Assembly (NCBI GenBank): GCA_964016885.1
Contig: OZ024742.1
Span: forward strand, 355,322,001 to 355,386,000
Source of the DNA: Eledone cirrhosa
Lineage: Eukaryota
Reading direction: 5' to 3'
DNA: 64,000 nt
The translations under genes were made by a program, and so were the position numbers. Positions 26,584 through 64,000 of the stretch are shown here, in pieces. The notes under the pieces were generated by a model. The model searched no databases, was not told where the DNA came from, and saw only the letters and a list, made by a program, of their open reading frames with translations. Positions within the stretch are counted from its first letter, which is position 1. Every line of letters begins with the position of its first letter.

Positions 26584-27435
26584 ATGTCGGTGGATTGACA
26601 GTATCGCTAGAGCGTCTGACGCCATGCTTTACAGCAAAGAGAAACGGCCCTTTGTGGTCTGAGTTCAAATCCTGCCGAGGTTTACTTTACCTTTCATCCT
26701 TACGGGTTCCACAAATTAAAGCACCATTAATACACTGCGATAATTGCTGGCCTTGTGCCAAAAGTAGAAACAACTATTATACGCAAACAGAAACCCACGT
26801 ACCGGCTGCCCCATGGCCCGGTGAAAAGAATAGATAAGGCGTTTTCCCGGAGGATGGTGAGGGAGACACGTTGGAATAAACTGTGTCTGGCATATGGAAT
26901 CTTCATTACATACGTTACATATACCAAAATTGTCCCAATTTAAGTATATGTATAAATATGTATCAGGATGGGTTTAGTTTGAAGCTTGTTAAAACATTAC
27001 TCAATGGATGTCTTGAGTATTTTTATATTATGCTGTAGAGTATTATTATATTATAAAGTGCCAGGATCCATCTGTGGAGCCCATGCCCTTTCAACAGGTA
27101 GTTCCTGACGTCTGGAACTAGCTGTTGATACGACAAGAGCTCCATCGTCGGGTCCCGACTACTTTTAATATATAAATTATAAATATACTTGTATAATTGC
27201 TGGCTTTGTGCCAAACGTAGAAACAATTATTATTATTATTAAAAAGATAAAAATAATAATGTTTCTACTATTGGCACAAGGCCAACAATTACCTCAGTAC
27301 ATCACTGGTACTTTGTTTTATCGACCCCGTAAGGATGAAAGGCAAAGCTAACCTCGACGGGATTTGAACTGAGAACGTAAAGAGCCATAACGCTATGCCG
27401 CAAAGCATATTATCTGACGCCCTACCGATACTGCC

Positions 27436-34865: not shown

Positions 34866-34940
34866 TCTTCTTCTTTTCTTTCTCCACTCCTCCTGTCCCT
34901 TCTTCTTCTTCATCTTCTTATTCTTCTTCTTCTTCTTATT

Positions 34941-34982
<42 letters not shown>

Positions 34983-34983
34983 G
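34866..34983. repeat. (CTT)n/(TTA)n tract at the left edge of the retrotransposon array
   Basis: Direct observation. Further (TTA)n spacers at 39530-39569, 40341-40366, 44669-44722, 47120-47149, 51700-51725 and 57735-57803. Confidence 0.95.
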
Positions 34984-34991
34984 TCGCCATT

Positions 34992-37900
34992 CCTTGAATC
35001 TCAGTCATTGATGTTGGTTAACTGGAAAGTCCGTTGGATTGAATATCAAGCCACTACCTGAGGCCTCAGATATTCAGGACGTATCGGAGGGTTCTTGCTG
35101 TTCCAAGCAAGCATGCCTTTTGAAGCGTTCCAAAAAGCGTGAAGGGGCCGATTTTCTTTAACCATCCCTGGAACCTTTTGGAGATAGTCCCCAGTGCGCC
35201 TATGACAATCGGGATCCCTTTGACTTCATGGCAGTTCCAAATCCTTTTCACCTCCCACTTTAGGTCCTGGTATCGGTTAATTTTCTCCCTCTCCTTCTCT
35301 TGCACTCTCGTGTCGAACGGGCAGGCCACATCCACAATCAGACACGATCTTTTTTCTTTGTCCACAACCACCAGGTCAGGTCTATTGTGTTCCAGTTTTT
35401 TGTCCATCTGTATCCTAAAATCCCACAGCACCTTCACCTGACTGTTCTCCATCACCGCCTCTGGCTTATGCTCATACCATTTCTCAGAATGTGGTAAATT
35501 GTTTACTTTGCACAGGTGCCAGTGGATCACCCTGCCCATCACATCGTGTCTCCAGCCCTTATAGTGTGTCTGGGCTAGGTGTTTCCACTCGGACACAATG
35601 TGAGCCACAGTCTCCTCTCTCTCTCCACAGATCCTGCACAGTGGGCTAGCCTCCTCCTTGTAAATATGGTGCTTCAACCACTTCGTTTTGAGGGCCTGCT
35701 CCTGCGCAGCCCTTAGCATTCCTTCTGTAGCCTTTTTGAGGTCTCCTCTTCTCAACCAGTTCCATGTCTGTGGATCTCTAAATTCAGTTTTCTCAAAGAA
35801 GGTACTATGAAGGGATTTTCCCTTAAGGCTGCTCTTCCTCCTTGATGTTATTTCCTCCTTGGACATCCCCTGGCCCACTGTCCCCTCCTTCAGTACAGTT
35901 CTGAGCATTGGCTCCTTACTATAGGTCACGTATTTGTATAGGTTGTTTTTCTCCATCTGAACACAGTCCTCTATGCTGATAAGACCTCTTCCACCCTCAG
36001 ATCTCCTTAGGTAGAGTCTATCGACATCACTCCTCTTGTGGAACATGTTGTAAATAGTCAATAGCTTCCTAGTCTTCCTATCCATTTCTTTTTGTTCAGC
36101 AACATTCCATCTCAGAATTCCCGCACTGTACGTAATAATAGACACAGCTCGGGAATTTACTGCGCTTTGGCATTTCTGCTGTTCAGATGTGACTTCAATA
36201 CGCTCCTTACTCTCCGAATGTATTCAGTTCTTAACAATTCCTTCATTTTTTGTTCTTTATGCCATCAGCCTCCAGAACGCCCAAATACTTGTATCCTTCC
36301 TCAGAGTCAATTTCCTTTATCATCTCACCTGTTGGTATCTGGATCCCGTTACTTCTGCTCAACCTACGCCTCCTCATCACAATGACTCCACATTTACCAA
36401 TACCAAACTGCATACATATATCACTGCTGAAAATACGGACAGTGTCAACAAGCACATCCAACTCCTTCTCACTTTTCCCGAAGAGCTTAAGATCGTCCAT
36501 GAAGAGGAGGTGATTGATGGTAAGCTCTCCCCTTCATAACTTGTATCCTGCTCTCACTTTTCGCAGCATAATGGTCAAGGGCATCAGGGCAAGGACAAAC
36601 AACAGAGGGGACAGGCTATCTCCCTGGAAGATACCTCTTTTGATCTTCACGCTTCCCAAGGGTACTCCAGTTGATGTCAACTCTGTCTCCCAGGACCCCA
36701 TACTCCTGCCTAGCAACTGTCTGATGTTATCTGCCACCCTGAAGATCTCCAGGCTTTTGGTGATCCAAGAATGAGGCACCATGTCAAATGCCTTTCTGTA
36801 GTCTATCCATCTCATGGCAAGATCAGTGTGTCTCCTCCTGCAAATTCCCCATTACCATCTTATCAATAAGTAACTGGTCCTTTGTACCACGTGACTTCTT
36901 TCGGCATCCTTTCTGTTCGTCCGGTAACAAGTTGTTTGTGTGGAGGTGATGGTAGATTTCCTCAGACACAATGCTCGTCAACAGTTTCCACATTACGGAC
37001 AGACATGTGATAGGTCTATAGTTGGTAACATCATTACCCTTGATTCGGTCTTTCATTATCAGAACTGTGGTACCTTTTGTCAACCACTCTGGCACCTCAC
37101 ACGACACCAAGCAGTCATTGAACATGGCCGTCAGCTTCGGGTGGAGGGATGTTAAATGTTTAATCCAATACCCCTGCACACCATCTGGGCCTGGTGATTT
37201 CCAGTTGGTTAGTATTTTGGCCTGCCCCTTAAGAGTTTCAACTGTGATACTCAAATCAGTTTGTTGCTGTGCCTGCTCACCGATCTCCCTCTGTACTGTC
37301 TCAATCCACCCTGCCTGGACATTATGTCTAACATCCTGCTCCCATATTCCTCTCCAGAATGTTTTAGTTTGCTCCGCCTCACGGATCAAGTCGTTGCCTC
37401 TTTCTTTCCCCTCAAGCTGTCCAAACAACATCTTCTGGTTGTTGTCGAACATGCGGTTCTGTTTATACTGACTGACTCTGATCTCGTATCGCCTGATTTT
37501 TGCACTCTTTGCTACAATGCGTTGCTTCAGTTCCTCTATGATAATATTTAGCTTTTTCCTCCTAGTTTTGTATTTTATTTCCAGTCTATTTTTAGTGCCT
37601 ATGTTTTTTAGTGTCCCATTCAGTAGTGACTCAAGCTTTCCTATGTCATTTCTCATTTCCCCGATTTGCCCACTCAGTCGCTTCTTCCACCACGGCTCTG
37701 CTCTTTCTTGTCTGTTGTTTCCTCTCGCTTTTATACCAAGTAGTTTCCTCACCGTATTTGCTGTTGCTTTGAGGATATTGTTGCACTGGTGAAGGCTCCT
37801 CGCCTCAAGGTATGGGATGACTTTGTTTACCTTAGCTGTTGTTTCTTTTAACTTTTTCCTGTCTACAAATATTAGGTTCATAGGTCTCCCACTATCATTG

Positions 37901-39529
37901 TTCAATTCATCTACCACTAAATTTAGGATGTCAACCGAATCTTGTCCTAGCCCGTCAGCATTCATCTCCTCAGTGGCCGTATCTCTGTTCCAGGTATTAT
38001 TTATCTCAGTATTCAGATCATTGTCTGCTTCGGCTGGTTCCTCCGTTCTCAGGACCTCTTCACCTTCATTTCCCACTGGCTCGCTTGTCTGGCATACTAC
38101 ACCCGCCATCTCCAAGTCATTCTCTCTGCTCAGTTCCTCCAGTTCCAGCTCGCTTATACACCCATTAGTTCTTATTACCCGAGCCTGCCCGGCCAATTTT
38201 TGTTCATCTAATTTAAATAAACCAATCTCGTTCCAGATGTTATGCATCCGTCTCCTGTAGCCCCTCTCCTTGGGGATACTTTTCAGGTAACATTGCATAA
38301 CAGTTATATTCAATTTTTTCGTCCAGTTGGTTCTGGCCCCTTTCCTTCTTCTCCTTCCTCCAACATCAGCAGTATTTGGTTGACAGTCAGGTTCCTGCTG
38401 CTGAGCCAGGGGGCACCTGTTGGGTGAGAGTCTGTCACATGACGTTCTAGTCTCCATTTCGCCGTTATTCGAACTGTTTATGTTCGATATTTAAACACTC
38501 TTATCGAGGATTGGCGAATGTATGGTTACATAGCCATCTGTGGATCCGCCATTCCACTTGGCCCTTGTGTGGAATTATCACCACGCTGTATACGAACACA
38601 CATAAACAAACAAACACACAGGCAGAAAGGGCCCCAAAAATGAATAAGCATAAGTTTCATTGTAATGTAGTGTTCGAATGTCTGACTTAGTTTTTGTTTT
38701 TTAAGTTTTAGTTTTTCCCCCCTCTTCTCTGTCCGTCCGCCTGCTTCTCTCTTCATTCTTATTTTCTTTACGTTTTGGGGTTTTTTTTTTTGATTTTGTT
38801 TTTGTTTTTCTCTGTTTTTCTTGTTTTTTGCTGTTGTTGCTGTGCTGCTTTGGTTTTGTTGTTTGTTTTTTCTTTTTTCTTTTGAGTCTATCTATATATT
38901 TTGATGCCTTCCTCTATTTTAGCAGTAGGGATTCTATAATGTGGTGGCAGCAGCCAGCTGATAGAAGTGGTAGACTGGCGGTGGTAGCGATACTGAGACA
39001 GTGTTGGTGGTGATGTCGATACCGAGGCAGTGGTGGCGGTGATGTCACCGTATTACTGTAGTGATGGTGCTGTAGCGGTGGTAACAGTGAAGGAGTGAAG
39101 GGGTGGTGGCGGCGGTGATGGGATAATGGTGGTAATGATGGCCGTAGTGAGCGGTGGTGATGAAAATGCCGTTATCTGGCTGTTGTGTTTAGTGTACACA
39201 AGTGATGGGGTGGGTGGTGTATCTAGTTTCTGGTGTTGGTGAGTTTGGCTGTTCTATATAGTGTAGACAGAGGAGAGGAGGGGGGTTCTTCTTCCATTTA
39301 TAGCCATTTTCTTTTTTGGATATACATTGTACAATACAAAGTTGAATATTTAAATATTTGAGCCTTATAACAATATATTTTGGGTCCGAATTTTGTGTGG
39401 CTCAAGCCGACTGCTTTACGTAGCATTTGTACTAAGAGTTGTTATTTCACAAATGATTTAAATATGTTAAAAATTCAAAACTTACGGGAGCGATTTCATG
39501 ACCTCCGTCACCTCGTGCGTCTTCTTCCC
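34992..39529 (-). mobile_element. R4/Dong-like RT+RLE retrotransposon, family B, copy E1, full length, frameshifted (ORF 38457->35066)
   Basis: N-terminal RTNWTKKLN...GYRRRMHNIW; [25 protein letters not shown]; knuckle CRIC..H..W (last Cys mutated); RLE RPDLVV..DVACP..KINRY. ~1.07-kb 5' UTR. (TTA)n at both sides. Confidence 0.93.
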
Positions 39530-39560
<31 letters not shown>

Positions 39561-39569
39561 GTTGTTATT

Positions 39570-40336
39570 CCTTGAATCTCAGTCATTGATGTTGGTTAAC
39601 TGGAAAGTCCGTTGGATTGAATATCAAGCCACTACCTGCAGCCTCAGATATTCAGGACGTATCGGAGGGTTCTTGCTGTTTCAAGCAAGCATGCCTTTTG
39701 AAGCGTTCCAAAAAGCGTGAAGGGGCCGATTTTCTTTAACCATCCCTGGGAACTTTTGGAGATAGTCCCCAGTGCGCCTATGACAATCGGGATCACTTTG
39801 ACTTCATGGCAGTTCCAAATCCTGTTCACCTCCCACTTTAGGTCCTGGTATCGGTTAATTTTCTCCCTCTCCTTCTCTTGCACTCTCGTGTCGAACAGGC
39901 AGGCCACATCCACAATCAGACACCTTCTTTTTTCTTTGTCCACAACCACCAGGTCTGGTCTATTGTGTACCAGTTTTTTGTCCGTCTGTATCCTAAAATC
40001 CCACAGCACCTTCACCTGATTGTTCTCCATCATCGCCTCTGGCCTATGCTCATACCATTTCTCAGAATGTGGTAAATTGTTTACTTTGCACAGGTGCCAG
40101 TGGATCACCCTGCCCATCACATCGTGTCTCCAGCCCTTATAGTGGGTCTGGGCTAGGTGTTTACACTCGGACACAATGTGAGCCACAGTCTCCTCTCTCT
40201 CTCCACAGATCCTGCACAGTGGGCTAGCCTCCTCCTTGTAGATATGGTGCTTCAACCACTTCGTTTTGAGGGCCTGCTCCTGCGCAGCCATTAGCATTCC
40301 TTCTGTAGCCTTTTTGAGGTCTCCTCTTCTCAACCA
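39570..40336 (-). mobile_element. Dong-like family B copy E2, 5'-truncated (CCHC+RLE+3' UTR)
   Basis: ORF 39644..40333; 3' end matches E1; (TTA)n flanks. Confidence 0.93.
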
Positions 40337-40366
40337 TATATTTTTATTATTATTGTTATTGTTATT

Positions 40367-43300
40367 CCTTGAATCTCAGTCATTGATGTTGGTTAACTGG
40401 AAAGTCCGTTGGATTGAATATCAAGCCACTACCTGCAGCCTCAGATATTCAGGACGTATCGGAGGGTTCTTGCCGTTCCAAGCAAGCATGCCTTTTGAAG
40501 CGTTCCAAAAAGCGTGAAGGGGCCGATTTTCTTTAACCATCCCTGGAAACCTTTGGAGATAGTCCCCAGTGCGCCTATGACAATCGGGATCACTTTGACT
40601 TCATGGCAGTTCCAAATCCTTTTCACCTCCCACTTTAGGTCCTGGTATCGGTTAATTTTCTCCCTCTCCTTCTCTTGCACTCTCGTGTCGAACGGGCAGG
40701 CCACATCCACAATCAGGCACGATCTTTTTTATTTGTCCACAACCACCAGGTCAGGTCTATTGTGCTCCAGTTTTTTGTCCGTCTGTATCCTAAAATCCCA
40801 CAGCACCTCCACCTGATCGTTCTCTATCACCGCCTCTGGCTTATGCTCATACCATTTCTCAGAATGTGGTAAATTGTTTACTTTGCACAGGTGCCAGTGG
40901 ATCACCCTGCCCATCACATCGTGTCTCCAGCCCTTATAGTGTGTCTGGGCTAGGTGTTTCCACTCGGACACAATGTGAGCCACAGTCTCCTCTCTCTCTC
41001 CACAGATCCTGCACAGTGGGCTAGCCTCCTCCTTGTAAATATGGTGCTTCAACCACTTCGTTTTGAGGGCCTGCTCCTGCGCAGCCATTAGCATTCCTTC
41101 TGTAGCCTTTTTGAGGTCTCCTCTTCTCAACCAGTTCCATGTCTGTGGATCTCTAAATTCAGTTTTCTCAAAGAAGGTACTATGAAGGGATTTTCCCTTA
41201 AGGCTGCTCTTCCTCCTTGATGTTATTTCCTCCTTGGGTATCCCCTGGCCTACTGTCCCCTCCTTCAGTACAGCTCTGAGCATTGGCTCCTTACTATAGG
41301 TCACGTATTTGTATAGGTTGTTTTTCTCCATCTGAACACAGTCCTCTATGCTGATAAGACCTCTTCCACCCTCAGATCTCCTTAGGTAGAGTCTATCGAC
41401 ATCACTCCTCTTGTGGAACATGTTGTAGATAGTCAATAGCTTCCTAGTCTTCCTATCCATTTCTCTTTGTTTAGCAACATTCCATCTCAGAATTCCCGCA
41501 CTGTACGTAATAATAGACACAGCTCGGGAATTTACTGCGCTTATGGCATTTCTGCTGTTCAGATGTGACTTCAATACGCTCCTTACTCTCCGAATGTATT
41601 CAGTTCTTAACAATTCCTTCATTTTTTTGTTCTTTATGCCATCAGCCTCCAGAACGCCCAAATACTTGTATCCTTCCTCAGAGTCAATTTCCTTTATCAT
41701 CTCACCTGTTGGTATCTGGATCCCGTTACTTCTGCTCAACCTACCCCTCCTCATCACAATGACTCCACATTTACCAATACCAAACTGCATACATATATCA
41801 CTGCTGAAAATACGGACAGTGTCAACAAGCACATCCAACTCCTTCTCACTTTTCCCGAAGAGCTTAAGATCGTCCATGAAGAGGAGGTGATTGATGGTAA
41901 GCTCTCCCCTTCCCAACTTGTATCCTGCTCTCACTTTTCGCAGCATAATGGTCAAGGGCATCAGGGCAAGGACAAACAACAGAGGGGACAGGCTATCTCC
42001 CTGGAAGATACCTCTCTTGATCTTCACGCTTCCCAAGGATACTCCAGTTGATGTCAACTCTGTCTCCCAGGACCCCATACTCCTGCCCAGCAACTGTCTG
42101 ATGTTATCTGCCACCCTGAAGATCTCCAGGCTTTTGGTGATCCAGGAATGAGGCACCATGTCAAATGCCTTTCTGTAGTCTATCCATCCCATGGCAAGAT
42201 CAGTGTGTCTCCTCCTGCAATTCCCCATTACCATCTTATCAATAAGCAACTGGTCCTTTGTACCACGTGACTTCTTTCAGCATCCTTTCTGTTCGTCCGG
42301 CAACAAGTTGTTTGTGTGGAGGTGATGGTAGATTTCCTCAGACACAATGCTCGTCAACAGTTTCCACATTACGGGCAGACATGTGATAGGTCTATAGTTG
42401 GTAACATCATTACCCTTGATTCGGTCTTTCATTATCAGAACTGTGGTACCTTTTGTCAACTACTCTGGCACCTCACCCGACACCAAGCAGTCATTGAACA
42501 TGGCCGTCAGCTTCGGGTGGAGGGATGTTAAATGTTTAATCCAATACCCCTGCACACCATCTGGGCCTGGTGATTTCCAGTTGGTTAGTATTTTGGCCTG
42601 CCCCTTAAGAGTTTCAACTGTGATACTCAAATCAGTATGTTGCTGTGCCTGCTCACCGATCTCCCTCTGTACTGTCTCAATCCACCCTGCCTGGGCATTG
42701 TGTCTAACATCCTGCTCCCATATTCTTCTCCAGAATGTCTTAGCTTGTTCCGCCCCAGGGATCAAGTCGTTGCCTCTTTCTTTCCCCTCAAGCTGTCCAA
42801 ATAGCATCTTCTGGTTGTTGTCGAACATGCGGTTCTGTTTATACTGACTGACTCTGTTCTCGTATCGCCTGATTTTGGCACTCTTTGCTACAATGCGTTG
42901 CTTCAATTCCTCTATGATAATATTTAGCTTTTTACTCCTAGTTTTGTATTTTATTTCCAGTCTATTTTTAGTGCCTATGTTTTTTAGTGTCCCATTCAGT
43001 AGTGACTCAAGCTTTCCTATGTCATTTCTCATTTCCCCGATTTGCCCACTCAGTCGCTTCTTCCACCACGGCTCTGCTCTTTCTTGTCTGTTGTTTCCTC
43101 TCGCTTTTATACCAAGTAGTTTCCTCACCGTATTTGCTGTTGCTTTGAGGATATTGTTGCACTGGTGAAGACTCCTCGCCTCAAGGTATGGGATGACTTT
43201 GTTTACCTTAGCTGTTGTTTCTTTTAACTTTTTCCTGTCTACAAATCTTAGGTTCATAGGTATCCCACTATCATTGTTCAACTCATCTACCACTAAATTT

Positions 43301-44668
43301 AGGATGTCAACCGAATCTTGTCCTAGCCCGTCAGCATTCATCTCCTCAGTGGCCGTTTCTCTGTTCCAGGTATTATTTATCTCAGTATTCAGATCATTGT
43401 CTGCTTCGGGTGGTTCCTCCGTTCTCAGGACCTCCTCACCTTCATTTCCCGCCGGGTCGCTTGTCTGGCATACTACACCCGCCATCTCCAAGCCATTCTC
43501 TCTGCTCAGTTCCTCCAGTTCCAGCTCGCTTATCCACCCATTAGTTCTTATTACCCGAGCCTGCCCGGCCAATTTTTGTTCATCTAATTTAAATAAACCA
43601 ATCTCGTTCCAGATGCTATGCATCCGTCTCCTGTAGCCCCTCTCCTTGGGGTTACTTTTCAGGTAGCATTGCATAACAGTTCTATTCAATTCTTTCGTCC
43701 AGTTGGTTCTGGCCCCTTTCCTTCTTCTTCTTCCTCCAACATCAGCAGTATTTGGTTGACAGTCAGGTTCCTGCTGCTGAGCCAGGGGGCACCTGTTGGG
43801 TGAGAGTCTGTCACATGACGTTCTAGTCTCCATTTCACCGTTATTCGAACTGTTTATGTTCGATATTTAAACACTCTTATCGAGGATTGGCGAATGTATG
43901 TTTACATAGCCATCTGTGGATCCGCCATCCCACTTGGCCCTTGTGTGGCATTATCACCACGCTGTATACGGACACACATAAACAAACAAACACACGGGCA
44001 GAAAGGGCCCCAAAAATGAATAAGCATAAGTTTCATTGTAATGTAGTATTCGAATGTCTGACTTAGTTTTTGTTTTTTAAGTTTTACTTTTCCCCCCCTC
44101 TTCTCTGTCCGTCCGCCTGCTTCTCTCTTCATTCTTATTTTCTTTACGTTTTGGGGGTTTCTTTTTTGTTTTTGTTTTTCTCTGTTTTTCTCGTTTTTTA
44201 CTGTTGTTGCTGTGCTGCTTTTGTTGTTTGTTTTTTCTTTTTTCTTTTGAGTCTATCTATATATTTTGATGCCTTCCTCTTTGTTAGTAGTAGGAATTCT
44301 ATAATGTGGAAGTGGTAGCTAGCAGAGACTGGCGGCGTTGGCGATACTGAGACAGTGGTGGTGGTGATGTCGATACCGAGGCAGTGGTGGCGGTGATGCG
44401 ACCGTATTACTGTAGTGATGGTGCTGTAGCGGTGGCAGCAGCAGTGAAGGAGTCAGGGGGATGGTGGCGGCGGTGATGGGATAGTGGTGGTAATGATGGC
44501 CGTAGTGAGCGGTGGCGGTGAAGGTGAAAATGCTGTTGTGTTTAGTGTACACAGATGATGGGGTGGGTGGTGTATCTAGTTTCTGGTGTTGGTGAGTTTC
44601 GCTGTCCTATATAGTGTAGCCAGAGGAGATGAGGGGAGGGTTCTTCTTCTTCCATTTATAGCCATTTT
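40367..44668 (-). mobile_element. Dong-like family B copy E3, near full length, three nonsense codons (ORF 43833->40441)
   Basis: ORF pieces 42460..43833, 42277..42459, 40729..42249 and 40441..40710 are in one frame. The 5' end is truncated at the A-run before ATGGCT. Confidence 0.93.
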
Positions 44669-44669
44669 A

Positions 44670-44722
<53 letters not shown>

Positions 44723-44724
<2 letters not shown>

Positions 44725-47119
44725 AGTTGCATTTATCTCGCTTTTTGTTCATACGAGTTCTCACCAAGTCACAACCAGTGACCTCAAGAGACAACAAGGT
44801 CCGCCATGGTCAAGAAAGAATATACATATTCACACATGCATCTTTAGTGTTTAGACTTGTGATGTACTTATGTTGACAGAATCTTCCTTAGTATATGGGC
44901 AGTTCCCATCAGTACTATCTTTTGTATTTCTCCTATACGCGGGTTTCCTGGGATCTGCGATAAGTAATCGTTAGACCCCTTAGGTATCATTCCCAGAGCG
45001 CCTACAACCACTGGTATTGTTTTAGTTCTCAATTTCCACATGTTTCCAATTTCTATCTCCAGGTCCTTATACTTGCTAAATTTTTCAAATGTTTTTATAG
45101 ATACATTCTTGTCTATTGGAACAGACATATCAATTAGGAGGCATACTCTCTTTTGAAAGTCCTTCAATATTATATCAGGTCTATTTGCATCTATTTTTCG
45201 GTCTGTTTGGATGCTAAAGTTCCACAAGATTGAGATGTGATATTTTTCAAGTATGGGAGGTGGTTGATGCTCACACCAATTCATTTGATGGGGCAGGTCA
45301 AAATGCTTACACATTATCCAATGTATGTATTGTGCAGCTCTGTCATGCCTGTTTAGGTATTCGATTGAAATTATATGGTCAATGGTCTCTGGTCGTTTTT
45401 TGCATACACGGCATGATGGGCTGCACCCATTTTTTATTATGTTGGCTTGGTAATTTTTTGTTGGCAGACACTGATCTTGTGCCGATATAATCAGTCCTAC
45501 AGTCTCCGATTTCAGTCCAGAGGATGCCAACCACTGATGGGTTAAAGTTTTGTCAACATCAGGATTGTTAGCTCGCTCTGGGTATTTTCCATACAGAGGC
45601 TTTTCTTGCCATTTCTTAGCCAGTTACTCTAGCAGTTCTTTCTTTGCAGTTACTTTTACCTGCTTTGCTTTTTCTTTGTTTTCCATTTCAGCAGTAAATG
45701 GGACTTCTGAAATGTGTAGTCCATTACTGTATCTTTGTGCATCTTTTGTAATGGAATATGATCTTTTGATGCTTTCGTGTTTCAAAACGAGTTTGATCAT
45801 CCAATCATGTGATTCCCTTAGATATGTAGATAATCCAATTGTTGCAGTTTTCACCGCAATGTCTAACTGGATTAACCCACGTCCTCCTTCTTTCTTAGGG
45901 AGATATATTATATCTATATCTGCCCTAGGGTGATGCATTCTGTGCATGGTTAGAAATTTTCGAATTTTTGTATCGAGCCTACGGATCTCTGTGCTTGACC
46001 AGTTGATGACATTGTAACTGTAGGTTACTACTGGTATGGCAAGCGTGTTTATGGCATCGATCCTATTCTTTGCATTCAATTCCGTTCATAAGATTGCTCT
46101 TACTCTGCGGTAACATTCCTTCCTTATCCTTTCCCTCATTGTCGAGTGCTTGATTCCGTCTCCTTCACAATCACCTAGATATTTGTATGTTTTTTCTTGA
46201 TCAAGTTCTCTAATCACGTTCCCCCGATCAAGATTAATGTCTGAACTCTTCAGCAGCTTTCCTCTGGTGAACGTTGCTTTGGCGCATTTATCTAGTCCAA
46301 ACTCCATTTTAATGTCATCACTGAACTGCTTCACAGTGGATAATAGCCCTTGCAATTGTTCATCATTTTTTGCAAATAGTTTCAGGTCATCCATGTAGAA
46401 CAGGTGATTAATGGTTTTGTCATAGACTTTATATTCATGTTTTGTTTCATTGAGCATTTTACTTAATGGTATAAGTGCGATGCAGAATAAAAGCGGTGAT
46501 AAAGAGTCACCCCGAAATATTCCACAATTAATATTAACTTCTCCAGCTTCCAGTCATTTTGTTTCACTATTCAAAAGGAGTGTCGTGTTCCATGTCTTCA
46601 TACTGAATGACAAACCCTCCTGACAACGGGGGATATTTTGAAAATCTCTAAACATTTTTCAATCCAACTGTGTGGCAAACTATCGAATGTTTTTTTATAA
46701 TCTATCCAAGCAATCGATAGATTGTTGTGTCTATTATGACAATCTTCCAGTATCATTTTGTTAACCAGAAGCTGATCCTTACAGCCATATGAGCCTCGTT
46801 TACACCCTTTCTGCTCAATGGGAAATAGGTCATTTGTTATCAGGTGGTCATATGTGTATTCAGCTAGGACTGATGTTAAAATGTCATACATTGTGGTCAA
46901 GCAAGTTATCGGTCTGTAATTTTGGGGATTGTTTGTCTCATCATTCTTCGGAAGCAGGAATGTGATGCCGTTAACTAGCCATGATGGTATCTTTTCTGGC
47001 TCCTTAACTATTTCATTGTAAAGTTGGGCTAACAGCTCATGAGACTCTGTGAAGGCATTTATCCAAAAGTTTTGTATTTTGTCTTTTCCTGGGGATTTCC
47101 ATTTGCTGGTTTTTCTTAG
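44723..47119 (-). mobile_element. R4/Dong-like family C, 5'-truncated, decayed
   Basis: RT EQKGC, WIDYKK, YMDD; CRVC..H; RLE NRPDIILKD..IDMSVP..KYKDL; terminal GTAHILRKILST*. Distinct 3' UTR. (TTA)n flanks. Confidence 0.9.
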
Positions 47120-47149
47120 ATTATTATTATTATTATTGTTATTGTTATT

Positions 47150-50100: not shown

Positions 50101-50176
50101 TTGTCCTAGCCCGTCAGCATTCATCCCCTCAGTGGCCGTATCTCTGTTCCAGGTATTATTTATCTCAGTACTCAGA
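47150..50176 (-). mobile_element. Dong-like family B copy E4, 3' non-inverted part (870-aa open RT/CCHC frame, stop inside RLE)
   Basis: ORF 47512..50124 plus 47224..47493. Confidence 0.93.
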
Positions 50177-50177
50177 A

Positions 50178-51700: not shown

Positions 51701-51940
51701 TATTATTATTATTATTATTATTATTGAATGCCATGGTTGACGGAGGCTCGGCTCTGTAAGGTATAGTAATTTTTAACCGTTAAAACAATTGTAAATTGTT
51801 TAAAACTTGAACCAAATTGTTGATAAAGACACCCTCCTCCTCGTGAGAGGGGTCTTTCTGTCCGTTATTTGGCCCTTCGGGGTTAAATAACAGCTTATTG
51901 GGGTTTTGTACCCAAAATTTCATTTTAAACAAAAAGGAAC

Positions 51941-54032: not shown

Positions 54033-54067
54033 GTGGTCTTTCCCATCTTTTCCACTCTATTTTAAAC

Positions 54068-57000
54068 ATGACCTCACTCAGAATAGGCAGCATAAATGCG
54101 CGTGGCTTGGGGTCGTCATGGAAGCAGGGTCACCTGCTCAACGACCTCAGGTCACTAAACATAGATGTAGTGGCCATCAGCGAGACCAGAATCTCCGAAG
54201 CACGGGCCTTCGCACCGATCTTCGGCGGCTACGATGTGTACGCATCTCCCAGCCGTCCTGGATCGGGTGGAGGAGTTGCTGTGCTTTTTCGGAGAGGTTT
54301 GGATCTCGCCATACGGGCCATCTTCCTGGACCCAGAGGGTAAGCTGGTGGTGCTGGACGTGACCAGCGGAGACGGGCAAGCTTTCAGGCTAGTGGCCGTC
54401 TATGCCCCGACAGGAGCAGGGCGGCCTGATTTCTTCCGGCGTCTGGAGACCTTTCTTGGAACGTCCCGCTCTTTAGTGTTAGTGGGCGACTGGAACGGGA
54501 TCTTAGATGCACGCTGGGACTGTGTGGGATTAGCGGATAGGGGTGGAGGGTGCAAGAGCCTCACCAACCTGCTCAGGCGTTTTGAACTGTCTGACAGGTA
54601 CCGATTGGATTTCCCGAATGTGCCAATGTGGACTTGGACAAACCGCATAGGGTCATCCAGATCATATCTAGATAGAGTATTTTGTAGGGAAATAGATAGG
54701 TCTAGCATAGGCTGTCCACAATTCAAGATAGTCAGCTACACGGACCACAAATTCGTGACCTGTGTGCTTGACTTAGATAGGCTTCATAGACGAGGACCCG
54801 GCTACTGGAAGCTAAACGCGTCCTTACCAGCGCGCAAGGCCTACAGAGACCGGATTAGCGAACTAGTTAAGCGGGCGTTGACGGGGGCCATCGTCAACAA
54901 CAAGTGGTGGTTTGATCTGAAAAGAGCGATTAGAATAGAATCGATTAGATTTAGTAAGGCTTAGCAATAGAGAAAAATAGAGCAGAGGGAGAACTAGTTA
55001 GACAATTAGACGAGGCGCTTAGCAAAGGCATTGCGACCGACGTGCTTGCGGCGAAATTGGCCCTTGACCAATTCTTCAATGCAAAGCACGAAGGCTGCAT
55101 TGTCAGAGCAAGGGTGCGTGCTCTCAGACACGAGGGGACGAAAGCCGTTCAATGGGCCCGAGTGGCGGAGGCGCGTCGTGGCAACAAAGCCACGATCCGG
55201 TCTTTGGTGGACCACGACGGGCGCATGCTACTCGATCCCGGGCAAATGTTTGAAGCTTTTCAGCGACACTTCGCTCAGCTGTTCGGGGGCAGCGGTGGGC
55301 CGGGTAGAGGGATGGACTTTAGTGTCTACCTCGACGGACTGCCGCGGCTCTCGGCCACTGAGGCGAGGTGTTGCGAAAAGCCGATAACAGCCGCTGAAGT
55401 AAGGGAGGTAATGACTGGCTGCACAAGGGGTAAATCGCCTGGTTTGGATGGTCTGCCCTATGAACTTTACGTACAGATGCCAGACTTGTTCGGAGGCCTC
55501 TTGGCGGACGTCTACTGCAACTGGCAACAGAACGGGAGAATTCCCAGTTCTGTGAGCCGAGGAGCGGTGGCACTGCTGAGAAAGGATCCGAACAAGGGGG
55601 ATAACATAGACAATTTCCGGCCCATAACTCTGCTAAACACAGAGTTTAAGATTTTGGCCAAGGTGCTATCAAAGAGGTTGGCGCTTGTCGTTGGTGGTCT
55701 GGTGGGAGAGGCGCAGACATGCGCCATTCCCGACAGATCCATCCACGACAACCTCCACCTCATGCGATACATCGTAGAGAGGGTAGCTAGGGAACCTGGC
55801 ACGGGTGGGTCCTTGATCAATTTAGATCAGTCGAAAGCTTTCGATAGGGTCGACCATCGTTACCTAGCGGCAGTCCTGAGGGCGGCTGGCTTTGGGCCCG
55901 TCTTCAGAGGCTGGATCGCTGCCATGCACAGCGACATCTGCTCTGTGGTGAGAGTGAACGGTCACCTGTCGGAACCGTTCAACATCATGCGCTCGGTCCG
56001 CCAAGGATGTCCCCTCTCGTCCCTCTTGTACGTATTGACTCTCGAGCCATTACTGCACAAACTGGAGAGGTTGAGGGGGTCTCGCGCGAACTAGGATGCG
56101 GAAGATCCGTATCAGCATATGCGGACGATGTCACCGTAGTGGTGTCGAACGCCAAACACATCGAGGCGATCGGCACTACACTAAGAGAATACGAAGCGGT
56201 GACAGGAGCAATGATCAACCAGGAAAAGTCAGTGGGCCTGCAGCTCGGCACCTGGAGAGGCAGGTCCATGCCGTCCAACAGCGTCGTCGGACGCTGGACG
56301 GACGGACCGGTTAAATTGCTAGGGGTCTGGTTCGGTCCGGACCTCCAGACGGACAAATACTGGGACGAGGTGACGAGCAGGGTGGCTTCTCTCACCCAGA
56401 AATGGGCCGAGAGGAAGCTATCCCTGAAAGGTCGAGCGGAGGTGGCTAACGCGTACATCGCGTCCGTCATCTGCTACCGCCTGACCGTCGTACCTTGTCC
56501 TAAGCCTCGCCTGACTGTGCTGGAGCGTTTGCTCTTTCGCTTTTTGTGGAAGGGACGCGCTCCGATGGTCAGGCGTTCCATCTGTTGTCAACACCCGCTA
56601 CGTGGAGGGCTGGGCATGCCGTGGCTGATGATGCGCAGGCACGCGCTCAGGCTACGACATCTCCACCTCTTCCTCGACGGTGATCAGGTGTGGTCGCCGT
56701 TTGCTAGACGCTTGTTTCCCCAGCTCGTTTCCTTGACGGAGCTGCAGTCCTGGGTCAAGCGAAGACCGAGAGGGAGCGCCTGGAGACTGGAATGTCATCA
56801 GGCGCTCACAGCCCTCGACCAATCGGGCAATGTGATCGGTGGAAACTCCAGCTCGGCGTTCTATAGAGGATTAGTGGAGGGGAAGAGCGACGACGTACTT
56901 GGGGAAACTCTAGGCGTCGACGAAAATCAACTAGCCAATCTCTTCGGAAGAACTTTCGGGCCAGGGCCTATGGACAACTTCCAGAAATCTCTGGCCTGGC

Positions 57001-57485
57001 AGTGCTACCGAGGAGCCTTGCCAGTTCGGGATAAACTCTACAGGCATGGAGGTGCCGTCAGCCGGGCATGTCCGAGATGCGCGCAGGGCGACGAAACCGT
57101 CCTGCACGCACTCGTCCAGTGTCCGAAAATTGCTGACTTGTGGGTTTATGTCGAACACCTGCTGTCGCGTTTAGGACGGATCCGGCTATCATCTGAGTCC
57201 ATCGTGAGGATTGCCCCGCCCTCCTCCTTTAGCCGGGAAGGGCAGACAGTTTTTATCTGCCTGGTGGCCATGGCGAAAGAGATAGTATGGTGGACACGTT
57301 TGAAAGGGCTGAAGACGAGCACTTACCTCTTCGGTGATGCTCTGATTGACTTTTTCAAATTTCATTTGAAAAGGAAAATCAGAGTAGAGAGGGAAGTGCT
57401 CTCTTCCCAGCATTTTGTTGAAAGATGGGTGAGAGAAGCAAGAATGGCCCGAGTGAATGGGCCTACTCTGAGCATATATCTGTAA
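54068..57485 (+). pseudogene. Tx1 ORF2 (APE endonuclease, RT, CCHC zinc finger), two frameshifts
   Basis: INARG, VAISET, YAP, GDWN, YLDR, TDH; KSPGLDG, FRPITLLN, DQSKAFD, RQGCPLS, YADD; CPRCAQGDETVLHALVQC. Confidence 0.92.
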
Positions 57486-57750
57486 ATTAAAGGTGGAAAA
57501 CTGGGAGAGGGCACTTGCCTTGGTGGTCAGGGTCATTGTGGCTTTTTACTGGGCTTTCTCCACAAATGTCCCTCCGAAGTCTACCCGCTATTGGGGAATT
57601 TTTCATTGTTATTTTTGTTACATCCTCTGTTTTTGTTTTTTACACGCAGAAATGCCCATTTGTACCGTCCTGCATTGTCCTGCACTGTCCTTAATGTCTA
57701 CTTTATGTAAACCCTTGTGGTTAATAAAGAAATCATTATTATTATTATTA

Positions 57751-57785
<35 letters not shown>

Positions 57786-57803
57786 TTGATTATTATTATT
57801 ATT

Positions 57804-60800
57804 GGCGACCTACGTAGTAAATCGTATCATCGTGAGCTCCGCAAAGGTTTGTTATTTCCGTTTGTTAAAAATTGCCATTTATGGAAAATTTTATTGTTAA
57901 CTGTTTATAAGCACACATACATTGTTTTCCGAAAAGGACACCCAAAAAGATTGGGGCCTTGTGCCCAAAATTTTAACTTTTATTATTATCCAAAAATTTC
58001 TTTGAAAAAAAATGGCTAATTCCCCTCTGCACGAAGCAGCTGAAAGCCTTCCTCACAAAATAACACCTCACACCGACACCACCATTGTAAATGTTACTAC
58101 GTTTGCCAACACAAAAAAAAATATAAGCAGTAGCAATATTTTAAATTTGTCTCAGGCAGACATTCATTTCCCGCCATTACCAATGACTGCAGGTGTTAAA
58201 CCCTCCACCGCCACCACCACCGCGACAACCACCACAACCACCACCACCACCGCGACAACAGAAACAAAAGAAGAAAAAAATAAATTAACTCGTGACGTCG
58301 AAATGAAATCAAGCAAAATGGACTCTTCCCCACCAAAGACGACTGACGTCACCACCACCACAACTGAAAATAAAATTAATATTAACGATAGCAACAACAA
58401 CAACAATGACATTATAAAACCGACCCTCAGTTTCGCCATCGTAGCAAAACAATTCGAAGCGTTCACGGTAACTCAAGAAGATTTAGAAAATGCCAAACAA
58501 ATGGTAAAGAAAGATGGGTACAGGGTCAGCCTCACCCCCCCCCCCAGCCACCCCCCACCCCCACCTAATAAAATGGAGCATCGGCGCCTGTGCACCGTGT
58601 CGTATAGAACAATAAATGTAAAATCGCGCCGAGTGGAACGGGCATCCGAGTCCCAAATCCAAAAAGCTTTAGGACATGTGTGGGCAAGAAAATCCCACAT
58701 CAGACGTGGGCAAAAGTATGGAACCGTGGATGTGTTCTTTGAAACACCAGAGGAGGCTAGAGAACACTCCATGGCTCCATTAAAAAGTGACGACTTCACA
58801 CTCGTCCCAAGCTATTGTGGACAGAGACTCGTAAAGATCAGGGTGACCCACGTTCCACCGGCCATCGAAATTCCCTGGCTAATAGCGGCTGTCATCGCCG
58901 GCATCGAGGCCAACACGAAAATAATAACAATAGCAAAAGAAAAGCAGGAAAACTGGTCCGGATCTGGGATGGAGCTCCTGATCCAAGCGGACCAAAAAAG
59001 CATTGAGGAGATCCCAGAGGTAATAGACCTCACTGACGGCAGCCACCTCACGGTAATTGTCGAGGGCAGAAGACCTAGGTGTGTCGTTTGTGGTGAAGGA
59101 ACCCACCTAAGGGCTTTCTGACCTCAGACTAAAAGGTTGAGGCCACCTCTCCTACCCACCCCAGTGACACAACCATCAACACCAGCAGTAGCAGAGATGC
59201 CAGCAACAACTGTAGCAGCAACAACAGAAGCAACTATAACAGCAACAACCCCAGCAACAGTAGCAAAACCAACACCACTACCACCACCAGCAAAACCAAC
59301 ACCACCACCACCCAACGCTTCAGAACTAGCACCAGCGCCTACACCATCCACCACACCACAACCAAAACTAACGGCTGTGGAGGATTTTCCACACCCGGCC
59401 TATCACAACTGGAGACAGATTGCGACGACGAGGAGTGGGAAACGATATCCGGAAAAAAAAAAGAAACCAAAAAAGAAAAAAATTCTCTTCCTTTCCCCTC
59501 CAAAAACAAAATACAGAGGGAAACAAATAAACTAAGAAACAAAAAAGTTAGGACAGATATGCCACCATCCACACCAGCATCACCAACCCCATCAACCCAA
59601 ACACCAACACCATCACCATCATTAACTCCAACACCACCATCACCTACACCACAAAAGTCACCAAAATTCGAAACAGAAACAAACCCACAACAAACGCAAA
59701 CAAAACAAAACAACCAAAACGATACACACTACACAGCATTAAATTTGAACAACAAGCAATTATTACACTACATCCAACACAACACCAGCATCACAGAAAA
59801 AGACTACACAACAACCCCAAAATTCACACCACCTCCACACATACAAATCACTCGCATCACACAGAAAACGTACATGACACTAAAACAAAAATTCCCCAAA
59901 GACATCGGAGACTTCCGACAAGCACTCTCCAGGAGGATTTATAAGGACATCCTTCCTGAGGAGGCCACAAGCAGTGAAAAGGATGGAAAAGCCGTCCTTC
60001 CCCTACAAGAAGTAAGGTAAGTGGTCTTTCCCATCTTTTCCACTCCTTTTCAACATGACCTCACTCAGAATAGGCAGCATACATGCGCGTGGCTTGGGGT
60101 CGTCATGGAAGCAGGGCCACCTGCTCAACGACCTCAGGTCACTAAACATAGATGTAGTGGCCATCAGCGAGACCAGAATCTCCGAAGCACAGCCTTTCGC
60201 ACCGATCTTCGGCGGCTACGATGTGTACGCATCTCCCAGCCGTCCGGGATCGGGGGAGGAGTTGCTGTGCTTTTTCGGAGAGGTTTGGATCTTGCCATAC
60301 GGGCCAACTTCCTGGACCCAGAAGGTAAGTTGGTGGTGCAGGACGTGACCAGCGGAGACGGGCAAGCTTTCAGGTTAGTGGCCGTCTATGCCCCGACAGG
60401 AGCAGGGCGGCCTGATTTCTTCCGGCGTCTGGAGACCTTTCTTGGAACGTCCCGCTCTTTAGTGTTAGTGGGCGACTGGAACGGGATCTTAGATGCACGC
60501 TGGGGTTGTGTGGGATTAGTGGATAGGGAAGGAGGGTGCAAGAGTCTCACCAACCTGCTCAGACGTTTTGAACTGTCTGACAGGTACCGAATGGATTTCC
60601 CGAATGTACCAATGTGGACTTGGACAAATCGCATAGGGTCATCCAGATCATATCTAGATAGAGTATTTTGTAGGGAAATAGATAGGTCTAGCATAGGCTG
60701 TCCACAATTCAAGATAGTCAGCTACACGGACCACAAATTCGTGATCTGTGTGCTTGACTTAGATAGGCTTCATAGACGAGGACCCAGCTACTGGAAGCTA

Positions 60801-62519
60801 AACGCGTCCTTACCTGCGCGCAAGGCCTACAGAGACCGGATTAGCGAACTAGTTAAGCGGGCGTTGACGGGGGCCATCGTCAACAACAAGTGGTGCTTTG
60901 CTCTGAAAAGAGCAATTAGAATAGAGTCCATTAGGTTTAGTAAGACTTTAGTAATAGAGAAACATAGAGCAGAGGGAGAATTAGTTAGAAAATTAGATGA
61001 GGCGCTTAGCAAAGGGTCTTTGATCAATTTAGATCAGTCGAAAGCCTTCGATAGGGTCGACCATCGTTACCTAACGGCAGTCCTGAGGGCGGCTGGCTTT
61101 GGGCCCATCTTCAGAGGCTGGATCGCTGCCATGCACAGCGACATCTGCTCTGTAGTGAGAGTGAACGGTCACCTTTCGGAACCGTTCAACATCATGCGCT
61201 CGGTCCGCCAAGGATGTCCCCTCTCGTCCCTATTGTACGTATTGACTCTCGAGCCATTACTGCACAAACTGGAGACGTTGAGGGGGGTCCCGCGCGAACT
61301 AGGATGCGGAAGATCCGTGTCAGCATATGCCGACTATGTCACCGTAGTGGTGTCGAACGCCAAACACATCGAGGCGATCGGCACTACACTAAGAGAATAC
61401 GAAGCGGTGACAGGAGCAATGATCAACCAGGAAATGTCAGTGGGCCTGCAGCTCGGCACCTGGAGAGGCAGGTCCATGCCGTCCAACAGCGTCGTCGGGC
61501 GCTGGACGGACGGACCGGTTAAATTGCTAGGGGTCTGGTTCGGTCCAGACCTCCAGACGGACAAAAACTGAGACGAGGTGACGAGCAGGGTGGCTTCTCT
61601 CACCCAGAAATGGGCCGAGAGGAAGCTATCCCTGAAAGGTCGAGCGGAGGTGGCGAATGCGTACATCGCATCCGTCATCTACTACCGCCTGACCGTCGTA
61701 CCTTGTCCTAAGCCCCGCCTGACTGCGCTGGAGCGTTTGCTCTTTCGCTTCTTGTGGAAGGGACGCGCTCCGATGGTCAGGCGGTCCATCTGCTGTCAAC
61801 ACCCGCTACGTGGAGGGCTGGGCATGCCGTGGCTGATGATGCGCAGACACGCTCTCAGGCTACGACATCTCCACCTCTTCCTCGACGGTGATCAGGTGTG
61901 GTCGCCGTTTGCAAGACACGTTTTTCCCCAGCTCGTCTCCTTGACGGAGCTGCAGTCCTGGGTCAAGCGAAGACCGAGAGGGAGCGCTTGGAGACTGGAA
62001 TGTCTTCAGGCGCTCACAGCCCTCGACCAATCGGGCAATGTGATCGGTGGAAACTCCACCTTGGCGTTCTATAGGGGATTAGTGGAGGGGAAGAGCGACG
62101 ACGTACTTGGAGAAACTCTAGGCGTCGACGAAAATCAACTAGCCAATCTCTTCGGAAGAACTTTCGGGCCGGGGCCTATGGACAACTTCCAGAAATCCCT
62201 GGCCTGGCAGTGCTACCGAGGAGCTTTGCCAGTTCGGGATAAACTCTACAGGCATGGAGGTGCCGTCAGCCGGGCATGTCCGAGATGCGCGCAGGGCGAC
62301 GAAACCGTCCTGCACGCACTCGTCCAGTGTCCGAGCATTGCTGACTTGTGGGTTTATGTCGAACACCTGCTGTCACGTGTAGGACGGATCCAGCTATCAG
62401 CTGAGTCCATCGTGAGGATTGCCCCGCCCCCTTCCTTTAGCCTGGAAGGGCGGGCAGTTTTTATCTGTCTGGTGGCCATGGAGAAAGAGATAGTATGGTG
62501 GACACGTTTGAAAGGGCTG
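57804..62519 (+). mobile_element. Tx1 copy 3 (ORF1 58012-60020; ORF2 with internal deletion; 3' end interrupted)
   Basis: Starts GGCGACCTA after (ATT)n. ORF1 of the copy-1 type. APE joined directly to GSLINLDQSKAFD at ~61015. Confidence 0.92.
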
Positions 62520-64000
62520 TTTTCCACTCCTCGACCTATCGCAACTGGAGACAGATTGTGACGACGAGGAGTGGGAAACTGTATCAGGAGAAAAGTAAAA
62601 AAAGAAAAAGCAGTCAAAAAAGAAAAAATCCGCTTCCCTCCACCTCCAAAAACAAAATACAGAGGGAAACAAAAAAACTATCAAACAAAAAAGTTAGGAC
62701 AGCTATGCCGCCATCTACACCTGCATCACCAACCCCATCACCACAAACACCAACACCAACGCCATCATTAACCCCAACACCACCATCACCAACACCAAAA
62801 AAGTCACCAAAAAGCGACCCAAAAACAAATCCACAACAAACGCAAACAAAACAAAACAACCAAAACGATACAGATTACACAGCATTAATTTTGAACAACA
62901 ACCAATTATTACACTACATCCAACACAACACCAGCATCACAGAAAAATACTACACAACAACCCAAAAGTTCACACCACCTCCACACATACAAATCACTCG
63001 CATCATACAGACAATGTACACGACACTGAAACAAAAATTCCCCAAAGACATCGGAGACTTGCGACAAGCACTCTCCAGGAGGATTTATAAGAACATCCTT
63101 CCGGAGGAGGCCACAAGCTGTGAAAAGGATGGAGAAACTGTCTTTCCTCTAGAAGTAAGGTAAATGGTCTTTCCCATCTGTTCCACTCTATTTCAACATG
63201 ACCTCACTCAGAATAGGCAGCATAAAGGCGCGTGGCTTGGGGTCGTTATAGAAGCAGGGTCACCTGCTCAACGACCTCAGGTCACTAAATATAGATGTAG
63301 TGGCCATCAGCGAGACCTGAATCTCCGAAGCACGGGCCTTCGCACCGATCTTAGGCGGCTACGATGTGTACGCATCTCCCAGCTGTCCTGGATCGGGGGT
63401 AGGAGTTTCTGTGCTTTTTCGGAGAGGTTTGGATCTCGCCATACAGGCCATCTTCCTGGATCCAGAATGTAAGTTGGTGGTGCTGGACGTGACCAGCGGA
63501 GACGGGCAAGCTTTCAGGCTGTGGCCGTCTATGCCCCGACAGGAGCAGGGCGGCCTGATTTCTTCCGGCGTCTGGAGACCTTTCTTGGAACGTCCCGCTC
63601 CTTAGTGTTAGTGGGCGACTGGAAGGGGATCTTAGATGCACGCTGGGACTGTATGGGATTAGCGGATAGGGGAGGAGGGTGCACGAGCCTCACCAACCTG
63701 CTCAGGCGTTTTGAACTGTCTGACAAGTACCGATTGGATTTCCCGAATGTGCCAATGTAGACTTGGACAAATCGCATAGTTTCATCCAGATCATATCTAG
63801 ATAGAGTATTTTGTAGGGAAATAGATAGGTCTAGCATAGGTTGTCCACAATTCAAGATAGTCAGCTACATGGACCACAAATTCGTGATCTGTGTGCTTGA
63901 CTTAGATAGGCCTCATAGAGGAGGACCCGGCTACTAGAAGCTAAACGCGTCTTTACACGCGCACAAGGCCTACAGAGACCGGATTAGCGAACTAGTTAAG
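62520..64000 (+). mobile_element. Tx1 copy 4, starting mid-ORF1 and running off the window
   Basis: From 62520 the sequence matches copy 1 from ~22012. ORF1 tail ends at 63163, followed by decayed APE. Confidence 0.9.

Follow-up and report, generated by a model that had tools for sequence, protein, structure and literature searches.

What sets the direction in which a retrotransposon enters a simple repeat, and how can many insertions come to lie in a single tract? These questions are raised by a stretch of 64,000 nucleotides from Eledone cirrhosa (contig OZ024742.1, positions 355,322,001 to 355,386,000; hereafter the window), whose right part (34866-64000) is a back-to-back array in which long interspersed nuclear elements (LINEs) are separated by tracts of one trinucleotide, here called (ATT)n when read on the plus strand. 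The minus-strand families encode a restriction-like endonuclease (RLE), and the plus-strand families, which are Tx1-like, encode an apurinic/apyrimidinic endonuclease (APE). Genome-wide, RLE LINEs lay in (TAA)n and Tx1-like LINEs in (ATT)n, that is, in opposite orientations in one trinucleotide repeat, and the array in the window is a real, single instance of this rule. Our analysis suggested that this arrangement probably arises because each endonuclease nicks its own strand of the repeat, and that the arrays would follow from it.

Two LINE classes in one trinucleotide repeat

The array in the window consisted of eight insertions: four of a family designated RLE_B, one of RLE_C, and three Tx1-like. 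A preliminary description, made from the letters alone, had counted at least nine; eight stood in the window, and nine was reached with a copy past its edge, giving a total of about 37.3 kb that ended near 72,243 (window coordinates continued). This last copy was cut short, and there was no tract at the right edge when the neighbouring 50 kb was examined. The claims that almost every junction is a (TTA)n tract, that RLE 3' ends point left and Tx1-like copies right, and that the same rule applies at 16.6-26.6 kb all held. A tract was present at 7 of 8 element boundaries (left edge counted), every RLE 3' end in the array faced left and every Tx1-like copy faced right, and at 16.6-26.6 kb a family designated RLE_D lay on the minus strand and a Tx1 fragment, a Tx1b copy and two short interspersed nuclear elements (SINEs) on the plus strand. 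The preliminary description had missed the SINE and an RLE inversion. At the exceptional boundary, 62,520, a copy without its 3' end was joined without a tract to a copy lacking its 5' 1.5 kb. The two copies were 91.6% identical, and the joint therefore looks like a deletion across the junction of two copies; a tandem duplication was ruled out, as the identity was just 91.6%. Two further joints, an inversion at 50,177 and an internal deletion of ~780 bp at 61,014, fell within elements, not between them. The plus-strand RLE piece at 50177-51698 was ruled out as a polarity breach or a separate element, being the inverted 5' part of the fifth RLE copy. RLE_B copies in the window were 96-98% identical and Tx1 copies 78-96%, and the truncation points all differed. 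The unique left flank up to 34890 was present in contigs of two runs.

The minus-strand families had a single long open reading frame (ORF) with reverse transcriptase (RT), a CCHC-type finger and an RPD..D.P.D..K...Y nuclease motif, and no APE; their best solved relatives were R2 proteins (E 3e-24, versus 7e-13 for L1). The plus-strand families had two ORFs, with Exo_endo_phos (the APE), RVT_1 and zf-RVT in ORF2, and their best solved relatives were L1 ORF2p (E 2e-31, versus 5e-20 for R2). ORF1 of both Tx1-like types (Tx1a and Tx1b) contained a Cx2Cx4H motif, whose last Cys was mutated in the window copies, and gave no Pfam match. A gag-like CCHC knuckle in ORF1 is a feature of the Tx1 clade. 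Judged by domains, target and motifs, the minus-strand families appear R4/Dong-like and the plus-strand families Tx1-like. Among the 120 RLE homologues listed there were no named R4, Dong or Rex6 members, and among the Tx1-like homologues listed none was named except hypothetical proteins of Argonauta and Branchiostoma; the nearest named protein came from Argonauta hians (75%, with 53% of the query covered). LINEs of these families made up ~3% of sampled DNA. Dong-R4 and L1-Tx1 are abundant or recently active in octopuses, Dong-R4 recently so in Octopus vulgaris, and the passages available from the two reports do not mention target sites (PMC13282606, PMC8967140).

The rule was examined at element ends across the genome; each set of 100 matches listed consisted of the earliest ones along contig C1 and was not sampled at random. 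Upstream of the Tx1a 5' end, (ATT)n was present in 100 of 100 matches listed of 2,573, obtained with a pattern that excluded only G at position -15, and in 99 it ended exactly in ATT. For Tx1b, a query without flank found the tract at 29 of 30 loci (one copy without tract, L007, directly abuts a truncated RLE_B), and with AAT equally permitted, ATT was present in 100 of 100 matches listed of 2,619. The Tx1a 3' end gave 3,818 matches; the sequence after it began with ATT in 29 of 30, with three or more units in 25. RLE_B showed (AAT)n upstream of its 5' end in 29 of 30, with variable last bases, and a (TAA)n flank at its 3' end, which closes in degenerate AAC/AAT units, in 30 of 30, the window copy being included in both sets; RLE_C 3' ends had a (TAA)n flank in 100 of 100 matches listed of 5,025. 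The target of the Tx1-like families was ATT, not (TC)n or (TTC)n, the latter being just an occasional neighbour, and the loci were interstitial and on many contigs.

Copies with an intact 3' end were also traced back to their 5' junction, loci being merged by flank sequence, so that a few may be counted twice. The expected tract was found at 65 of 85 RLE junctions, as (AAT)n, and at 30 of 37 Tx1 junctions, as (ATT)n, and a wrong-strand tract at 0 of the 122; the polarity of the array is therefore not due to chance. The 20 RLE misses comprised seven library gaps, one A-run after the tract, five inversion rows (four loci), two copies abutting (AAG)n, two with a short extra piece before the tract, and three without a tract. 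Because truncated ends cannot carry a leader, 5'-truncated copies test the target flank itself: (AAT)n was present at 61 of 78 RLE copies, and (ATT)n at 8 of 14 Tx1 copies by script and 10 by eye. In raw reads of another sample with the same species label, >11,000 reads that left the RLE at its 5' end continued into (AAT)n; the same transition was present in another organism's contig. Neither the lack of (ATT)n at 5' flanks nor the random orientation that the preliminary description had considered as objections was found: the flanks carried the tract, truncated copies included, and orientation was fixed genome-wide.

Probable nick sites and 5' joints

The SINE (185 bp; 152,640 exact 3'-end matches) has a head that we take to be tRNA-like, for which Rfam gave no match. 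In 700 kb sampled at round-number positions, ATTAT followed 33 of 39 SINE ends, three ATT units followed 5, and AAT followed none. Of 96 distinct SINE ends, 37 lacked a SINE directly upstream and showed an exact, non-repeat duplication of 10-21 bp; the base before this duplication was C in 22, T in 12, A in 3 and G in 0 (34/37 C or T), against a background of 15% C before ATTAT. For Tx1, 30 loci with the 3' tract broken after two units were chosen, and 15 were short enough to see; five of these showed a 9-18 bp duplication preceded by C or T. With L105, a further case (11 bp), C or T preceded the duplication at 6 of 6 Tx1 sites, and SINE and Tx1 thus had in common a Y|ATTAT start and a duplication of 9-21 bp. 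The C/T base lies across the nick, so the nuclease is the best explanation of the preference, and the APE probably nicks the bottom strand at 5'-AATAAT^R. A pyrimidine-purine step also characterizes the L1 nick. The TRAS1 nick, TT^AGG, likewise falls at such a step (PMC7265360).

The 3' ends of SINE and Tx1 had a CTTGT loop in common, on stems that changed in pairs between them (AACC/GGTT or GGCC/GGCC in Tx1, TGGC/GCCA in the SINE); minimum-energy folding of the SINE fragment does not choose this hairpin. Since the hairpin and the insertion signature are common to both, the SINE is likely moved by a Tx1-like LINE. The ATT 3' of SINE and Tx1 is likely target sequence, and the Tx1 end (C followed by ATTATT) likely rebuilds the preferred site. 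Of the earlier claim that each insertion regenerates its target, the part concerning Tx1 and the SINE is shown by their duplications, which begin with ATTAT; for the RLE such regeneration is putative.

The 5' joints of the two classes differed. Full-length Tx1a copies with a non-repeat 3' flank had 7-23 ATT units upstream and no duplication in 3 of 3 cases. In the model for R2, joints are precise when the RNA includes upstream target sequence, which anneals, and variable when the RNA starts at the element (PMC3774820). Given their uniform phase and upstream ATT without duplication, the Tx1 joints would fit the precise case, and those of RLE the variable case. RLE_C is stricter than Tx1 on repeat length: the repeat broke after two units in 15 RLE_C matches, 14 of which resumed it, and in 157 Tx1a matches, of totals (5,025 and 3,818) from slightly different patterns. 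One RLE copy in the window fits a 13-bp duplication. RLE 5' inversions with twin-priming geometry were seen in the window copy, whose inverted piece shows a 5' end with no tract attached, and at L065, L081, L089 and L260, with 0-3 bases of microhomology, read by eye; L044 was more complex. L260, the one breach among sampled tracts, was ruled out as a polarity exception, being a 5' inversion. In a literature search on twin priming with a restriction-like endonuclease, the part of PMC6895275 available names it for L1 only, and the other papers listed were mostly on L1. At three full-length 5' junctions (L033, L037, L059), the first bases of RLE_B were briefly duplicated.

These data suggest the following mechanism. 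The Tx1 APE would cut the (AAT)n strand at 5'-AATAAT^R-3' and, through a further nick at a distance of 9-21 bp, the target would be duplicated; the same enzyme would move the SINE via the common 3' hairpin. The uniform ATT|G 5' joint may come from full-length Tx1 RNA that bears several upstream AUU units and pairs with the target in register. The RLE would nick the (TTA)n strand and require a longer run, its 5' end being joined by microhomology, sometimes with twin priming. A tract would be left on both sides of each insertion, so that a used tract stays usable by both classes, and unequal exchange and deletion would later lengthen and trim the arrays. Flanks, polarity, phase and the duplications starting with ATTAT were observed directly. 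That the endonucleases act on opposite strands, as previously proposed, was supported on the APE side by the C/T preference at SINE and Tx1 sites; the RLE strand we only infer.

Alternatively, the RNA might set polarity, either strand being nicked and a (UAA)n or (AUU)n read-through tail annealing to only one of them. All 3' ends pass straight into the repeat, RLE_B in degenerate AAC/AAT units, the twin-priming-like inversions indicate that the second strand is also cut early, and tail-target annealing has been described for SART1 and R1Bm (PMC7265360). However, the C/T preference (34/37) lies across the nick, outside tail pairing, which indicates that the APE side reads sequence on one strand. 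We consider this explanation unlikely overall, but it may hold for the RLE class.

Growth of the arrays and possible exchange of parts

Where a LINE end adjoined a tract, another LINE bordered the tract's far side in 93 of 143 element-anchored cases (65%), whereas in the sampled 700 kb LINEs occupied 15 of 54 tract sides, a baseline that stands on 27 tracts only. An urn model in which all tracts are used equally expects 28% and was rejected; the difference indicates that used tracts are favoured or that arrays are amplified. The orientation rule failed at two far sides, one occupied by an inverted RLE piece and the other by a fold-back SINE. Arrays also lengthen by local duplication: at C1:441.1 Mb eight units were 98.3-99.9% identical, at C1:57.08 Mb units were 96-98% identical, and at C1:55.44 Mb a Tx1a + RLE_C unit with an identical truncation point was present twice. 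The preliminary description, in which regeneration builds the arrays, had missed this contribution. An imperfect 42-54 bp linker recurred at C2:188.05, C1:441.1 and C1:57.08 Mb, outer flank included, and variant linkers began at other Y|RTTAT sites; insertion may thus at times copy a tract in its entirety. Pure Tx1a tandem arrays of eight or more copies, with identical imperfect linkers of 42-54 bp, were seen at L326-L331 (C1:441.09-441.15 Mb), L332-L334 and L200-L202.

It could be argued from such loci, where units reach 99.75-100% identity with identical linkers (C2:188.05 Mb), 98.3-99.9% (C1:441.1 Mb) or occur as a repeated Tx1a + RLE_C unit (C1:55.44 Mb), that arrays come mainly from unequal exchange or assembly error after few insertions; moreover, no read or contig spans the window array among the contigs and restriction site-associated DNA reads used, which are unable to span it. 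Yet this array mixes four families whose copies differ by 2-22% and have a truncation point each, the junction type was confirmed in raw reads, and the rule holds for single, unclustered copies, so we regard this explanation as highly improbable. Because the window array is mixed and diverged, independent insertion probably dominates there. That the tracts are merely element tails and leaders, with insertion not target-specific, might be read from the uniform full-length Tx1 5' phase, which points to RNA carrying some of the 5' tract, and from the TAA tails known for the I element (PMC3747384), but 5'-truncated copies are flanked by tract, the 5' end of the inverted RLE copy lacks (TAA)n, and duplications start with ATTAT and continue into unique sequence, so that this idea is already largely refuted and has hardly any probability left.

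Several observations weigh against our reading of strand-specific nicking followed by array growth. On the RLE side, the nick site is only inferred, RNA-tail pairing alone could set the polarity, and all three informative RLE_C copies had a 5' tract free of their 3' interruptions. On the Tx1 side, the APE target is a short motif rather than a microsatellite (5/39 SINE ends with three ATT units), and of the 15 short Tx1 copies seven had no duplication and three matched over only 6-8 bases. No ribozyme like that of hepatitis delta virus (HDV) was found in seven leaders, at either class's 5' end, with Rfam and with a descriptor of our own used without a positive control. Certain arrays are simple duplications, as at C2:188.05 Mb, where four units were 99.75-100% identical; no recognised neighbour adjoined 17 of the 27 tracts sampled, and regeneration alone does not account for array length. 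The clade names are based on domain content and motifs rather than a tree that includes named references. The features of the window are collected in Table 1.

Table 1. Repeats, LINEs and SINEs in the window and just beyond it
Position	Strand	Feature	Remarks
16611..16622	+	(ATT)4	at RLE_D 3' end
16623..20290	-	RLE_D, older RLE family	5' boundary approximate
19261..19368	+	5'-truncated SINE within RLE_D	13-bp target duplication starting ATTATT
20291..20506	+	3' fragment, another Tx1-like subfamily	left boundary approximate; then (ATT)4 at 20507-20518
20519..26356	+	Tx1b, full length	then (ATT)3
26367..26772	+	two tandem tRNA-like SINEs	(ATT)10 between
34866..34981	+	left-edge compound microsatellite	(TTC)n-rich, then (TTA)9 and (TAT)6
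34982..39529	-	RLE_B copy 1, full length, 4,548 bp	broken ORF; RT, CCHC-type finger without its last Cys, PD..D..K nuclease motif
39300-39529	-	RLE_B leader	similar to Tx1a and Tx1b leaders
39530..39559	+	(TAT)10 tract
39560..40336	-	RLE_B copy 2, 5'-truncated	~780 bp
40337..40352	+	short imperfect tract	interrupted (TTA)3
40353..44672	-	RLE_B copy 3	without first 213 bp
44673..44723	+	(TTA)17 tract
44724..47119	-	RLE_C copy	5'-truncated at RT start; 34-47% protein identity vs RLE_B
47120..47137	+	(ATT)6 tract
47138..50176	-	RLE_B copy 4, 3' two thirds	from element position 1513 onward; open frame of 897 aa that includes the RT
50177..51698	+	inverted 5' third of RLE_B copy 4	element 1 to ~1525; twin-priming geometry, 12-bp overlap
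51699..51725	+	(ATT)9 tract	common to RLE and Tx1a 5' junctions
51726..57734	+	Tx1a, full length, 6,009 bp	frameshifted; ORF1 zinc-knuckle-like motif; ORF2 APE, RT, zf-RVT
51726-51955	+	Tx1a leader	similar to RLE_B and Tx1b leaders
57735..57803	+	interrupted (ATT)n tract	6+10+5 units
57804..62519	+	Tx1b copy	internal deletion at 61,014, 3' end gone; leader and ORF1 differ from Tx1a; ORF2 ~95% like Tx1a
57804-58033	+	Tx1b leader	similar to RLE_B and Tx1a leaders
62520..64000	+	further Tx1b copy	5' 1.5 kb gone, joint without tract; extends to 66,820
beyond window		tract after 66,820, then last copy	to ~72,243

The first 230 nt of RLE_B and Tx1a gave a colinear alignment (z 4.7-6.1 against dinucleotide and position-keeping shuffles), whose score was reached by 0 of 1,500 genomic 230-mers. 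Pairs with the Tx1b leader were weaker (z 1.7-4.6), no similarity was seen on reverse strands, and profile searching with the leader gave at best a marginal match (E 0.024). The RLE_B, Tx1a and Tx1b leaders close with an A-run and ATGG(C/T)T, which lies between +208 and +229 except in one case (+243) and in RLE opens 17-40 codons only. The likeness may reflect common origin or convergent promoter motifs. We entertain, as a tentative and rather doubtful idea, that the LINE classes traded parts, the 220-nt RLE leader being homologous to the Tx1 leader through promoter capture in self-renewing mixed arrays; if so, those mixed arrays would also feed ~150,000 SINE copies.

Other modules vary among these families. 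RLE_B and RLE_C swap 5' modules (L203-L205, L144, L209, L212, L215): the first 377 bp of full RLE_C copies resemble RLE_B, and a C-type 5' region occurs in one RLE_B ORF. Tx1a and Tx1b have a common ORF2 beneath different leaders and ORF1. In the RLE_C 5' region, a SINE 3' fragment followed by ATTATT occupies the same place in several copies (one at L093, continued window 86,587-86,664; L209, L210, L212) and seems to be fixed in the family.

A second array lies 14 kb further on (continued window 86,290-99,662; L093, L094); it is RLE only, with five copies in the opposite direction, (AAT)n tracts and a duplicated 5' piece. (TTC)n/(GAA)n often stands beside ATT tracts at insertion sites (L109/L153, L116/L187, L183, L074, L324, window 34866-34935). 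Fold-back SINEs, two pieces joined in opposite orientation, were present at window 27187-27436, L103 and L341. Nested inverted repeats within 2805-5060 (3264-4033 palindromic) and 32356-33849 (32356-32701 versus 33499-33849) are perhaps elements like miniature inverted-repeat transposable elements, and 1526-2127 is an inverted copy of 26588-27187.

Comparison with known systems

The locus matters as a high-copy natural test of strand and orientation control in target-primed reverse transcription, in which two unrelated nucleases meet a single three-base repeat at thousands of junctions and imperfect SINE sites expose the APE consensus AATAAT^R. The proposed mechanism would name the partner LINE and the target of a very abundant SINE, would explain LINE pile-ups of tens of kb at microsatellites, and would extend the known site-specific endonucleases by an ATT-specific APE. 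SINEU of crocodilians has a small nuclear RNA (snRNA) head and a transposon as target, whereas the SINE here, with 152,640 matches, has a short ATTAT target and a head that is presumably tRNA-like. As here, SINEU was likely moved by a Tx1 element (Tx1-Mar), with a target preference in common (PMC4494074).

Dong (R4 clade; Bombyx, Anopheles, Biomphalaria) targets the TAA microsatellite (PMC3812793), and the Tx1 elements Kibi and Koshi, like crocodilian Tx1, are microsatellite-specific, the targets being TC (Kibi), TTC (Koshi), TTCC and TTTC (PMC4494074); the preliminary description had already cited Dong, Kibi and Koshi. The RLE families resemble Dong in the TAA target and in the layout of RT and PD..D..K nuclease. 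They differ from it in the several co-existing families, the leader resembling that of Tx1, and the 5' inversions; Dong has an HDV-like 5' ribozyme (PMC3774820), and none was found in the seven leaders here with Rfam and the descriptor without positive control. ATT, the target of the Tx1-like elements here, is not among the targets named in the text of PMC4494074. Within the literature accessible to us, neither an ATT-targeting Tx1 nor a mixed array of opposite polarity was found; such a family may be recorded in Repbase, in Kojima and Fujiwara 2004, or in the supplements or the tree figure of PMC4494074.

The novelty of the convergence had been overrated, because opposite orientation in one repeat (TRAS/SART) and APE/RLE convergence on one site (Keno/Utopia) are already published; as the principle has these precedents, the surprise is moderate. 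In Bombyx, TRAS and SART (R1 clade) are likewise two LINE families in opposite directions in one simple repeat, with the endonuclease as the main determinant of orientation (PMC7265360). However, both are APE elements of one clade in telomeric (TTAGG)n, whereas RLE and APE elements here occupy, at thousands of loci, a trinucleotide that is interstitial. Keno (Tx1, APE) and Utopia (RLE) evolved in parallel on one target, the U2 snRNA genes, as the two classes here would have done on theirs, and tandem insertions occur (PMC4640811). Keno and Utopia have the same site, an identical 3' flank and the same orientation in a low-copy gene; in Eledone cirrhosa, in contrast, the flanks lie on complementary strands of a microsatellite, in one genome and in mixed arrays.

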